A stretch of DNA of 64,000 nucleotides from a bacterium (GTDB taxonomy: Bacteria > Zhuqueibacterota > Zhuqueibacteria > Residuimicrobiales > Krinioviventaceae): the NCBI GenBank assembly GCA_963693055.1, contig OY843751.1, positions 2,336,001-2,400,000 on the forward strand, written 5' to 3'. The first letter of the stretch is position 1, and each line of letters starts with the position of its first letter. The position numbers and the translations under genes are program-made. The notes below the pieces were generated by a model that did not search any database, was not told where the DNA came from, and was given only the letters and a program-made list of their open reading frames with translations. Below are positions 17,608 to 21,080 of this stretch, piece by piece.

Positions 17608-18387
17608 TTATTTTGTTTTTATTTTATTAAATAATTCAGGTAATTTTGTGTTGTAAAAATCTATAATTTTTTCTTGAGTATCTCCCAGGGGTTTTACCGG
17701 AACGAGATCCTGGACTTGTTCATATAAAAGTCCCGAATTAAACAATGTTTTAAGTGATGTATCTGTCATGACTTTGACCGCAGAAACGGCTTCATCCGCA
17801 TCCATACCAAATTGTTCTGCCAATTGGTGCAGTGTATGCCATTGAAACCACATATATGTTGGACCCATTGCAACTATCATTGCATATGCTTCCAGTTTTG
17901 CTTCGGCTACCAATGGAACTTGTCCCAAATATTTAAAAGCCGAAAATACTTTTTCCTGCTCTTGCGTGGTAACAGATGTTGAAAAACAAATTGGATTTAA
18001 CCCTTCATTAATGATAGATGCCGCGCTGGGAATTGTACGAACAATCTTTTTATGTTTGTTCAGCCCTTCTGAAATAACCTGAATTGTGAACTTGGGTGCC
18101 AGTGAAATGATTAAAGTGTTTTCATCAACATAATCTTTAATCGAATCCAATACTGATTTTATAACTGGTGGGTGTACAGCAATCACTATTGTGCTAAATT
18201 CTTTAATATTTGAGTCTATTGATCCCGCTGTTTGAATGCCGAATTTTCTTTTCAGTTCTGCGTTAACATTAGCATCAGGATCAAATACCGTAATATTGTC
18301 GAGTGGTATATTGCTGTTTGCCCAACCTTGAAGCATAAAGTTTACAACTCTTCCACCACCAATAAATAAAATTTTTGAATTTAACAT
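17608..18387 (-). CDS. Pyrroline-5-carboxylate reductase-like NAD(P)-binding protein
   Basis: Rossmann 'FIGGGR', 'IAVHPP', 'AMGPTY'; RBS GGAGGG upstream. Confidence 0.75.
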   Translation of the reverse strand: MLNSKILFIGGGRVVNFMLQGWANSNIPLDNITVFDPDANVNAELKRKFGIQTAGSIDSNIKEFSTIVIAVHPPVIKSVLDSIKDYVDENTLIISLAPKFTIQVISEGLNKHKKIVRTIPSAASIINEGLNPICFSTSVTTQEQEKVFSAFKYLGQVPLVAEAKLEAYAMIVAMGPTYMWFQWHTLHQLAEQFGMDADEAVSAVKVMTDTSLKTLFNSGLLYEQVQDLVPVKPLGDTQEKIIDFYNTKLPELFNKIKTK

Positions 18388-18423
18388 TGTCCCTCCAATT
18401 GTAATATTATTTAAAGTTTAGTG

Positions 18424-18438
18424 CATATGACCATAGGA
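18424..18438 (+). repeat. Left terminal inverted repeat CATATGACCATAGGA
   Basis: Reverse complement of 20241-20255 with one mismatch. Confidence 0.85.
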
Positions 18439-18476
18439 ATCATTGTTTTAATAAAAACAGAAATAAGGAGATTCTT

Positions 18477-19316
18477 ATGGCAGATGTTAAAAATAATTAT
18501 GGTTTAAAAAGACTCGAATCCAAGACAGCTAAAAACGCTATTGTCCAAAAACTGTCTCAGGATTTCAATTTGACTCCTATTATTGCCGAAGCTTACTATC
18601 AACAATTTGACCAATACTTTCAGGAACATTCCAACATTTCATTATCAGGAGGTGAAGTCGCTTATGAAGCTGTTGCCGCTGAAGAACCAGCCGGCAAACA
18701 TATCAGATTAACCCGAAAGCTTACGGTCCGTCTCAAACTAATTGACTTTAATACAGATCTGCAAGCCCTGGCTAATTATGGCCTTGCCGGACTTAGACGA
18801 CACCGGATCGCCCGTCTGACTCGACAAGCCTATGATCAGGGTGCTTTACTCAGCTATGAAGACCTGGCAATGCTTTTAACCACCAGTCCGGCCACTGTTA
18901 AACGTGACATTTATCATCTCCGTCATCACGGTATGTTTATCATGACACGAGGTATGAAACATGACATGGGTCCCGGACTGTCTCATAAAACCATCATTAT
19001 TGATCTGTATCTTAAAGGTTATACCTTTTCAGAAATAGAACAAAAAACCAATCATTCTGAAACCAGCATCAAACGTTACCTCGCTGACTTTATGCAGATC
19101 GCCCTTTTATACAAGGAAAATTTCTCTCCGAACCAGATTCGACTCATTGCAAAGAAATCCGACCGCCTGGTGCGCGAGTATATCCAACTCTACCAAACCT
19201 ATCTTCAACAAAACAATACGCGATTAAACGATCTGTTATCTCCTGCGGAACCTGGTGGCGACGCGAAAAAAAAATCCATTCCTCAACATCTATCAGGAGG
19301 CAAAGAAAATGAGTAA
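18477..19316 (+). CDS. DUF1670-like protein A (multiple HTH-like segments)
   Basis: 'AYDQGALLSYEDLAMLL', 'TRG', 'HKTIIIDLYLKG', 'HSETSIKRY'; resembles PF07900 from memory; RBS AAGGAG. Confidence 0.8.
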   Translation: MADVKNNYGLKRLESKTAKNAIVQKLSQDFNLTPIIAEAYYQQFDQYFQEHSNISLSGGEVAYEAVAAEEPAGKHIRLTRKLTVRLKLIDFNTDLQALANYGLAGLRRHRIARLTRQAYDQGALLSYEDLAMLLTTSPATVKRDIYHLRHHGMFIMTRGMKHDMGPGLSHKTIIIDLYLKGYTFSEIEQKTNHSETSIKRYLADFMQIALLYKENFSPNQIRLIAKKSDRLVREYIQLYQTYLQQNNTRLNDLLSPAEPGGDAKKKSIPQHLSGGKENE

Positions 19317-20133
19317 ACCTTTGACTAAAGAACAAATTCAACTCAAAAAAATGAGACGACTTAAAGATAAAGATCTCAAGCAGTTACTACTGTACAACTT
19401 TTTGAATAGCTATGGCTATGACAAAGGAGCCATCACTGCCAATGCCATCATTGATGATATCCTTAAAATCATTGATGACTATTTCCTTGTCTCCTCTATT
19501 GATGATGACTTGCACCATATTCACTATGGGCAACTCGTCTGGATGGCTGTTCCTGTCGATGAATACCCCAAACGCGGAAAAAGTATTGCCGCTACCCGAA
19601 TGAAACCCGTTGTCCTCTCTTTCATTACTGATCAGGATACTTCTCATATCGCGCATGGTTTTGATTCCAAAACTTTAAGGAAAAGACGCCTCAAACGTTG
19701 GGTTGATGAAGCTTTTGATCAAGGTGCTCTGCTTACTCAACTTGACCTGGCTATGTTACTCGGTGTCTGTGATGCCGTTGTCAGTAAATATGTAAATGAA
19801 ATCCAAAAAGAAGGGCATCTCTTACCAACGCGTGGCAACATCCATGATCTTTCCGGCGCTATTACTCATAAACGCGAAATTATCACTCTGTATCTTGAGG
19901 GATATCTCACTCCCGAAATCGCTTTGAAAACCAAACACAGCAACGAAGCGGTTGACAGGTATATCAAAGATTACCATCGTGTTGAATTACTTTGGAAGCA
20001 TGACATTAAAAACCTTGATCAAATCAGCCAGCTGGCAAGACTTTCCAAACGTGTCATACAACAATATGTTGATCTTTTGCCTGATAAAATTAAAAATCAA
20101 AGGAGTCAGTTGAATCTTTCAAAGAACAATTAG
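19309..20133 (+). CDS. DUF1670-like protein B, paralog of A
   Basis: 'AFDQGALLTQLDLAMLL', 'PTRG', 'HKREIITLYLEG', 'HSNEAVDRY'; RBS AGGAGG at 19295-19300; ATG overlaps the end of ORF A. Confidence 0.8.
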   Translation: MSKPLTKEQIQLKKMRRLKDKDLKQLLLYNFLNSYGYDKGAITANAIIDDILKIIDDYFLVSSIDDDLHHIHYGQLVWMAVPVDEYPKRGKSIAATRMKPVVLSFITDQDTSHIAHGFDSKTLRKRRLKRWVDEAFDQGALLTQLDLAMLLGVCDAVVSKYVNEIQKEGHLLPTRGNIHDLSGAITHKREIITLYLEGYLTPEIALKTKHSNEAVDRYIKDYHRVELLWKHDIKNLDQISQLARLSKRVIQQYVDLLPDKIKNQRSQLNLSKNN

Positions 20134-20162
20134 TTGCTTTTATATTTCCCTTTTATTACTTT
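20134..20162 (+). promoter_or_regulatory. Outward-facing sigma70-like promoter near the right end of the element
   Basis: TTGCTT (20134-39), 17-bp spacer, TACTTT (20157-62). Confidence 0.4.
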
Positions 20163-20240
20163 CAGAATGACAGATCACCAAATTTATTAATGATCTGACG
20201 CTCCGTTGTATTTTTAGGGGGTTTTATAAATTTCTTTTTC

Positions 20241-20255
20241 TCCTCTGGTCATATG
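20241..20255 (-). repeat. Right terminal inverted repeat (TCCTCTGGTCATATG)
   Basis: Reads CATATGACCAGAGGA on the minus strand. Confidence 0.85.
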
Positions 20256-20258
20256 ATA

Positions 20259-21080
20259 CTATTTTAACAAACTTAATTTTTGGGTTTTAGAAAATTGATC
20301 TCCTATGACAGTGACAAAGTAAATACCCGAAGCGCAACTGTTTCCCAGGTCATTAGTACCATTCCAATTCAATTCAAATGATTGATTTATATAGTTTTCT
20401 ACTAATAGTGTTTTTATTTTTTTTCCTGTAATATCATAAATGTAAACTGATATATTTTGAGGTTTTAAAAGTTCTGCTCTGATTTTTGTACCGGCATTAA
20501 AGGGATTGGGGTAAGCACTTAATAATGATAACGTTTCCGGCTGTCTGGATTTGTTGATTCCACTGACAACGTCTGATACAGTTATTTTGATGAGTACGTC
20601 TCTGTCATTATAAGGCTGCCAGCCACAACAATCATGAAAAAATAGCCTGTCTGTTATAGGTTCATTAAATTCGCAACCAAAAGAAACAAAAAAAGTACTT
20701 TCTATTTCAAAAGAAACCGCAATATCACAATCTAAGATAATGTTTTTATCACTTAAAACTATTTCATTCCAGCCGGTCTGTGAAGCAGTTACAGATAACG
20801 GTCCAAAAAATTCTACACTTGGCATTTTTTCATTTATATCATACAAATACAAGTTGAAGGTATTTCCTTCATCCAGTGATTCTACATAGTATTCAATCTT
20901 TTGCAACTGGCATTCACCGGTTATATCAAATCGTGTAGCTAATTTCTGAAGAAACGGGATATTGAATTTGGCTTCAATATTTGGATTACCATTGTAATAT
21001 GAAATTACCTGTTCAACTTGTGTAAATGCCAATTGTGTCGCTAATAAAATTAAACCTGCTACTAATTTCCAGTTTTGCAT
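20259..21080 (-). CDS. Secreted protein with T9SS/FlgD-type C-terminal domain
   Basis: Signal peptide; 'AYPNPFNAGT...WNGTN..G..CASGIYF...KLSLLK'. Confidence 0.85.
   Translation of the reverse strand: MQNWKLVAGLILLATQLAFTQVEQVISYYNGNPNIEAKFNIPFLQKLATRFDITGECQLQKIEYYVESLDEGNTFNLYLYDINEKMPSVEFFGPLSVTASQTGWNEIVLSDKNIILDCDIAVSFEIESTFFVSFGCEFNEPITDRLFFHDCCGWQPYNDRDVLIKITVSDVVSGINKSRQPETLSLLSAYPNPFNAGTKIRAELLKPQNISVYIYDITGKKIKTLLVENYINQSFELNWNGTNDLGNSCASGIYFVTVIGDQFSKTQKLSLLK

Follow-up and report, generated by a model that had tools for sequence, protein, structure and literature searches.

The window, by which is meant the whole 64,000-nucleotide stretch of DNA that was analyzed, carries genes for ArsR, ArsP, a Por_Secre_tail protein, an F420_oxidored/proC-like protein and a thioredoxin-like protein, in the order given by an earlier note on this DNA, and these are interrupted by a compact element with two genes (Table 1). 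The two open reading frames (ORFs), A and B, are paralogs that overlap by 8 bp and share 34% identity over 196 residues, and both belong to PF07900 (DUF1670), as the earlier note had assigned them, with E values of 1e-58 for ORF A and 2e-62 for ORF B. The element carries these two ORFs only and no TnsA-D genes. Its coding strand is C-rich, as had been judged by eye, with 24% and 22% C compared to 14-17% in seven neighboring ORFs. The tail of the Por_Secre_tail protein matches that Pfam family at 33.8 bits (cut-off 27), and also FlgD_ig, and is of the T9SS type. A promoter scan gave 10 sites against 6.7 +/- 2.7 in shuffles, which is within chance, so no promoter is claimed; one promoter-like site within this chance level (18406-18433, minus strand) lies across the left junction and is directed toward the proC-like gene, where it could offset a polar effect.

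Table 1. Positions of the element, its genes and its target in the window, with one copy of the sister element
Feature	Position	Strand	Remarks
Whole insertion sequence	18411..20264	+	1854 bp with both 2-bp core copies; 1852 bp with one
Left terminal extension	18411..18423	+	core copy 18411-18412 followed by 7 bp and by 4 bp that belong to the repeat in relatives
Left subterminal inverted repeat	18424..18438	+	15 bp
ORF A, DUF1670	18477..19316	+	279 aa
Candidate catalytic set codons, ORF A	18948..19079	+	R158, H170, H193, Y201
Predicted ORF A layout			helices and a hairpin at the N-terminus, a winged HTH (about 102-164) and two further HTH units
Run of nine A near ORF A end	19266..19274	+	ORF B frame (+1) open from here; candidate slippage site
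ORF B, DUF1670	19309..20133	+	274 aa
Non-coding right end	20134..20240	+	no unusual folding; without structured RNA of some relatives
Right subterminal inverted repeat	20241..20255	-	15 bp
Right terminal extension	20256..20264	-	core copy 20263-20264
Restored target codons in right extension	last Lys-codon base 20262; TAG stop 20261-20259	-
Target arm, degenerate motif	20263..20285	-	AA at -15/-14; T at -11, -8, -5, -2 from core
Target gene with T9SS-type C-terminal sorting tail	20259..21080	-	273 aa; frame left intact
proC-like gene	17608..18387	-	insertion separates gene from upstream part of cluster
Sister-element copy	L001:550-2437 = G000:C1:987149-989036		six more copies elsewhere

The earlier note had bounded the element by two 15-bp inverted repeats (18424..20255). 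The repeats do match at 14 of 15 positions, and none of 300 random window pairs gave an equal pair. A BLAST search for extra copies, as had been suggested, revealed five more in the same genome (G000), and the six copies do not differ at any of the 1832 bp between the repeats and agree over another 13 bases on the left side and another 9 on the right side. Hence the repeats are subterminal, with fixed extensions of 13 and 9 bp beyond them, and the element extends over 18411-20264. The outer 4 bp of the repeat are mismatched in the window copy and form part of the repeat in relatives. A contig of the repeat in public runs ends exactly at 18411-20264, although this is probably from the source sample and not independent. 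The non-coding right end of about 120 bp was correctly described, and three other details fell with the old boundaries: the stop codon placed 3 bp from the right end actually lies inside the element, the true empty site has one AA and no CATATG, and the gap predicted after removal is 19 bp, from the target-gene stop to the proC-like start, rather than 45 bp.

A sister element is found in the same genome. It is 1886 bp long, contains two DUF1670 genes whose products are about 30% identical to those of the window element, and is present in seven copies, six of which are 99.8-100% alike and one 92.8%; in its first ORF the differences between diverged copies are mostly synonymous (29 to 10; 52 to 12). 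The sister has different repeats, its genes lie opposite relative to its ends, and its target is the same. Its right end forms a strong hairpin (z -5.3). There are also short remnants of sister ends (G000:C1:5975650, 1730449, 3844072, 5684746, 5106381, 333453), five of the six lying directly after the stop codons of genes with the sorting tail (tag genes).

That the window element is a real and recently spread insertion sequence is virtually certain. In a genome of the same genus (G001), eight of the 11 other distinct sites, which hold five copies of the window element and four of the sister (three sister-element sites being left out), were compared, and all eight are empty with joined flanks. 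The empty site predicted for relatives does therefore exist at 8/8 of these sites, although not in the CATATG form, and the six alleles that were checked base by base each have one copy of the AA core, as expected from the new boundaries. G001 has neither the element nor the target gene at the locus of the window copy, and so offers no exact empty allele for it. Its arsR-arsP-proC-like cluster is itself without the tag gene (window 20259-21080; L036:3050-3500). Among the matches listed for assembled contigs from three runs of one sample there was no circle or empty-site joint, and loose contig ends were mostly other known sites; contigs drop rare forms, so a missing joint is no evidence of absence.

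Relatives of the element are widespread. Of 61 related genomes, 16 have DUF1670 matches; across the phylum, ORF B is matched in 27 of the 167 genomes; and the DUF1670 profile is matched by 2518 cluster representatives. The family occurs in many phyla and reaches Methanosarcina (a control row), with KSB1, Calditrichota, Marinisomatota, Cloacimonadota and Eisenbacteria among the named hosts. The queries used gave no match in plasmids, phages or viral contigs. The earlier note had proposed a test of whether DUF1670 pairs elsewhere are flanked by inverted repeats, and by hand count a repeat score of at least 11 is reached in 49 of 63 loci, versus 8% of random windows in G000. The central claim of the earlier note, a mobile element lacking a catalogued transposase, is thus sustained by the multiple copies, the empty orthologous alleles and the relatives with flanking repeats. 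In distant clades (Chloroflexota, Pontiella) repeats are present and no tag gene is found at the element ends; elements of Pontiella/Kiritimatiellales (L093, L094, L097, L098, L102) have inverted repeats of 43-47 bp. A group II intron end (RF00029) lies exactly at the right extension in two loci (L217:2142-2225 and L225:2074-2157).

The junctions define a 2-bp core. The loci of relatives examined comprised 80 of 82 genome loci and 80 of 456 metagenome hits, together with loci from related genomes and the phylum, and gave 74 distinct insertions with both junctions, across several phyla, in counts whose rows are related and not independent. At 59 of these the insertion is at a tag-gene end, while the other 15 include eight in Poribacteria palindrome loops, tandem or interrupted ends, an intergenic site and unclear cases. 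The two copies of the core agree in 63/74 (AA 49, CG 8, TA 5, AG 1) and differ in 11/74, and at tag ends they agree in 49/59, compared to 27 in shuffles (maximum 38 in 10,000). Core type clusters on a quick protein tree, with 10 changes versus a shuffled mean of 18 (reached in 0/200 shuffles). The gene-side bases after the core are element-derived (ATAG or ATAA in 71/74), with a stop after the near core in all 59 tag-end insertions, while the far-side bases next to the core come from the target. At four mismatch loci (L050, L250, L194, L197) the first core base is that of the element lineage on the far side and of the target on the near side, and the second base is equal on both sides in 56/59, including L007 and L194 where it is unlike that of the sister lineage. 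These patterns suggest that joining takes place within the core and prefers matching bases, although the second-base identity also fits a 1-bp target duplication.

Such a duplication would be produced if A and B were a transposase using metal-dependent hydrolysis and transesterification, with His ligands and a staggered cut of 1-2 bp that duplicates the core. The identity of the core and of its second base on the two sides would be explained in this way, and the proteins contain conserved acidic residues (D94, E117, D129, D163). This chemistry is nevertheless judged distinctly unlikely, as on the far side of the four mismatch cases the first core base is that of the element lineage, the extensions beyond the repeats are fixed and asymmetric, and D94 is kept in most degenerate copies of the protein (see below).

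What the earlier note missed is the main feature of the element, namely its exact targeting of secretion-tag gene ends. Eleven of the 12 distinct sites of the window and sister elements are the Lys-stop codons of T9SS-type tail genes, the twelfth being intergenic, and removal of the element restores the Lys codon and stop that follow a tail of the form YPNPFN ... SG-x-Y ... K. The window element is inserted against the direction of the gene and the sister with it, and both rebuild the stop. An iterated profile found 250 tag-type gene ends in the genome (a few of them false), and only 154 of its 23,135 AARTAR hexamers are tag-gene ends, so that 11/12 corresponds to a P of about 1e-23. It could be argued that the choice of target depends on the tagged protein being translated or exported, or merely reflects selection on near-random AARTAR insertions, since the local motif leaves many non-tag sites unused and what is conserved about the target, in GC-poor and GC-rich hosts alike, is a protein motif. 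However, 152 of the 681 gene ends with AARTAR are tag ends, which gives a P of about 5e-8 for the observed sites by selection for gene ends alone, the TA-core relatives, which join inside the stop codon, keep the DNA register and are one codon off relative to the protein end, and the Poribacteria copies are in non-coding palindromes. An origin of the target preference in translation, export or selection alone is accordingly considered the least probable of all, and very improbable in absolute terms.

How much of the targeting can be ascribed to the degenerate DNA motif at the gene end was evaluated with a matrix trained on 37 sites of other genomes, as training on the organism's own tag ends would be circular. 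At the score of the weakest tag site the matrix selects the top 668 of about 13 million positions in the genome, comprising 165 tag ends, 419 sites inside genes, 80 intergenic sites and 4 other gene ends. The local motif alone gives a P of 2e-6 for the observed tag-end sites and hence is not sufficient, whereas if sites inside genes are disregarded 165/249 are tag ends and P for 11/12 is about 0.05, and so local reading plus selection is roughly sufficient. The matrix fails to explain the intergenic site and the Poribacteria palindrome sites, both of which score low. A distal contact beyond the local motif may also contribute. The spacing to the distal G-x-Y was found in 67/71 occupied versus 116/140 free sites (P 0.019) with motif-less rows dropped, but in 67/81 versus 116/143, no clear difference, with the 10 and 3 motif-less rows kept.

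The choice of a conserved 3′ coding end as a safe landing site is shared with Tn7 and its TnsD/attTn7 system, which is described as inserting 27 bp downstream of one gene with TnsABCD (PMC12372198). The element studied here differs in that its joins fall within the final codon of genes belonging to a family of about 250, and in that it encodes two small proteins. Elements stacked in tandem at one gene end are seen in several loci (L003:1347-5086; L195, L226, L258, L263), and this is to be expected if every insertion regenerates the stop and the arm on the gene side.

The architecture of the ends resembles that of the IS1111/IS110 group. In relatives the repeat is 4 bp longer than in the window copy and leaves 7 and 3 bp beside the core (6 and 3 bp in the sister), and IS1111 is described as having subterminal repeats with 7- and 3-bp (or 6- and 3-bp) extensions and as forming circles (PMC11187229), while a 2-bp core is reported for IS621 (PMC11208158). 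The likeness extends further: each end carries a copy of the core, insertion into a given target is in one orientation, the genes are followed by a non-coding region, and some members target palindromic repeats. Because the 7/3-bp geometry is that of a circle-forming element, we infer by analogy that a circular intermediate is also likely here. The differences are that IS1111 has a DEDD transposase and a seekRNA, whereas here there are two DUF1670 genes without a DEDD/RuvC domain match, no shared guide RNA, and a degenerate, codon-periodic target.

The resemblance to IS1111 raises the question of whether the target is selected by an RNA from the right end, to which DUF1670 would be bound as a recombinase of a new kind. 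In addition to the IS1111-like ends and the non-coding region downstream of the genes, a three-helix motif is present at the right end of 31/73 close relatives, with compensatory changes in 12/16 pairs, and a Poribacteria relative that is 62% identical in A targets a palindrome instead of a tag-gene end, with at least 10 copies (L106-L113, L115, L122) in the 6-nt loop of a 13-bp palindrome. In the 31 relatives the motif (e.g., L186:2341-2399) comes after a -10-like box and is followed by a long variable hairpin. It has no Rfam family match, and nothing credible for the element ends was found in Rfam. However, the motif profile has no hit in G000, the home of 13 recent copies, and on a quick tree the motif is scattered, having been gained or lost 11 times with the target unchanged. 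The right end of the window element folds no better than shuffles (z -0.2 and -0.8), and targets vary freely at third codon positions, which base pairing would tolerate poorly. The three-helix motif is no shared guide RNA, and guidance by an RNA from the right end is regarded as very unlikely.

As the earlier note had supposed, HMM searches place neither ORF A nor ORF B in a transposase or recombinase family of Pfam or NCBIfam; no DEDD/RuvC or DDE domain was matched in these databases at E values up to 1, and PF00589 has no match in either protein. Since they match no catalogued transposase family, the two proteins are likely to be an undescribed DNA cut-and-join enzyme. An AlphaFold2 model of ORF A (pLDDT 86, pTM 0.66; core pLDDT 91) has as its best structural matches the HTH domains of regulators, with Z up to 7.9 over 45-70 residues. 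Foldseek against PDB and BFVD gave no match at E up to 0.001 with the whole ORF A model or the core model (88-212), and VIA gave none at Z >=8 with either. The best 50 structural rows, which barely cover residues 1-98, contain no recombinase, transposase catalytic or HUH domain, and do include the HTH of Tn3 resolvase and the winged helix of Topo VI-A; absence from such lists excludes nothing. Sequence searches of PDB gave no match in one case and HTH only in the other, ESM Atlas gave nothing at 0.9 or above, PHROGs gave HTH-level matches only, and the 25 commonest family matches besides DUF1670 are all HTH models. Both proteins are predicted to be arrays of HTH units. The top structural matches are plain HTH regulators, and a purely DNA-binding role of A and B would also fit them.

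Candidate catalytic residues are nevertheless apparent. In 100 aligned proteins R113, Q121, R158, G159, H170, H193, Y201 and Y235 are 97-99% conserved, and among them R158, H170, H193 and Y201 (R175, H187, H210 and Y218 in ORF B) may constitute a catalytic set with Tyr as the nucleophile. The conserved His residues are 23 apart, and no adjacent His-hydrophobe-His (HUH) motif is present. Of 30 multi-domain homologs, three consist of two complete units fused together and 27 start with a degenerate unit, which mostly keeps D94, R113 and Q121 and loses the R158/H170/H193/Y201 set, while the unit that follows it keeps all four; in the last units of fusions and trios the H, H and Y are kept and the R158 position varies. 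Homologs with three domains (930-950 aa) or with a degenerate plus a complete unit (about 520 aa) are known (P0122-P0125, P0150, P0161 and others), and their organization suggests trio-type elements.

It must be considered whether A and B are noncatalytic HTH adaptors that unite the element ends with the target on behalf of a host enzyme, such as a Xer recombinase or a topoisomerase, or a transposase acting in trans. The HTH-only matches of the family and of the structural searches are what this would predict, and G000 itself has seven PF00589 matches. Yet the near-invariant His, His, Tyr and Arg residues, lost in degenerate copies, would be unusual for an HTH protein that only binds DNA, the complete G000 genome has no PF01548 match, and a search of G000 and G001 for IS110-type transposases gave none. 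Moreover, as the family occurs in Methanosarcina and many phyla, a shared host partner would need to be universal. An adaptor role is on balance unlikely, and A and B are themselves probably the catalysts.

Multi-subunit tyrosine-recombinase systems, such as RIT trios, Tn554 and XerC/XerD, offer a parallel to a pair of paralogous enzymes and act on a core of 6-8 bp. The likeness lies in two or three paralogous subunits, some apparently inactive, in conserved Arg, His, His and Tyr at similar spacing, and in joining within a short core. The spacing H170..H193..Y201 is 23, 31, compared with 23, 32 for R..H..Y, a comparison made by eye that would fit any HTH. HTH-derived catalysis was reportedly discussed by Grishin in 2000. 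Against kinship with the tyrosine recombinases, there is no PF00589 match, profile comparison with up to 27 of their domains gives a probability of 0.2-0.3%, no box I arginine is seen by eye at the usual place, and the core is 1-2 bp rather than 6-8 bp. The active site of tyrosine recombinases is given as a pentad, RKHRH, plus Tyr (PMC8138268).

The earlier note had also suggested that the two proteins are the mobilization enzymes, possibly as a heterodimer. Two subunits are supported indirectly by natural two- and three-domain fusions among the homologs, including A-B fusions, while the catalytic role is inferred. A fusion might in addition be made by the window element itself. Ahead of its end, ORF A has a run of 6-10 A in 75/80 junctions (A9 in 50), the remaining five comprising three with another overlap and two without a run. 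The B frame is open from the run in 75/75 junctions versus 53/75 upstream control windows, and the twelve commonest codon patterns in the run have no AAG, compared with 66% AAA in the ORF body. An A-B fusion by slippage on the A-run is thus plausible. Two-ORF elements with a frameshift fusion are familiar from IS1, IS3 and IS630, which likewise have overlapping ORFs and an A-run that could give a fusion; here, by contrast, both ORFs are full paralogs that would be joined by a +1 shift, the repeats lie inside the ends, and no DDE family is matched.

A model can be assembled around what was directly observed, which is the copies, ends, empty alleles, core, target class and restored stop. A and B would bind the subterminal repeats through their HTH units, as a heterodimer or as the A9-slippage fusion, and the ends would be joined into a circle in the order repeat, 7 bp, core, 3 bp, repeat. 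The proteins would read the degenerate motif, about 27 bp long, where the gene ends, and possibly also the G-x-Y codons about 60 bp upstream, while hits inside genes would be removed by purifying selection. His170, His193 and Arg158 would activate Tyr201, and strands would be exchanged within the core, preferably where the donor and target cores match. The end of the element would then rebuild a sense codon and stop, leaving the target arm reusable and allowing tandem stacking. The chances that this entire scheme is correct, a core-joining IS with a likely circular intermediate and a DUF1670 pair acting as a new tyrosine-nucleophile recombinase, are put at roughly even. That DUF1670 forms an HTH-only recombinase class, with a His-His-Tyr site, that reads the codon-periodic signature of the tag and can be retargeted by protein change, is held a little more tentatively.

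Prokaryotic transposition is ascribed to a few enzyme types, namely DDE, DEDD, HUH, serine and tyrosine. Going by their sequences, the DUF1670-pair elements are an IS family with base-exact targeting, recent activity and no catalogued enzyme. No paper was found in the full-text literature on DUF1670 or PF07900, a search that lay outside subscription journals, supplements and ISfinder, which may list elements of this kind. If the family does fall outside the known types, it would add a new class of enzyme, provide a function for PF07900 and expose mobile DNA that annotation has missed, and its exact ends, core, target rule and candidate catalytic residues make it directly testable. A two-subunit, base-exact integrase of about 550 aa could also serve as a tool, and if the tag signature is what the proteins read, hundreds of harmless landing sites would be available to such elements in a single genome.
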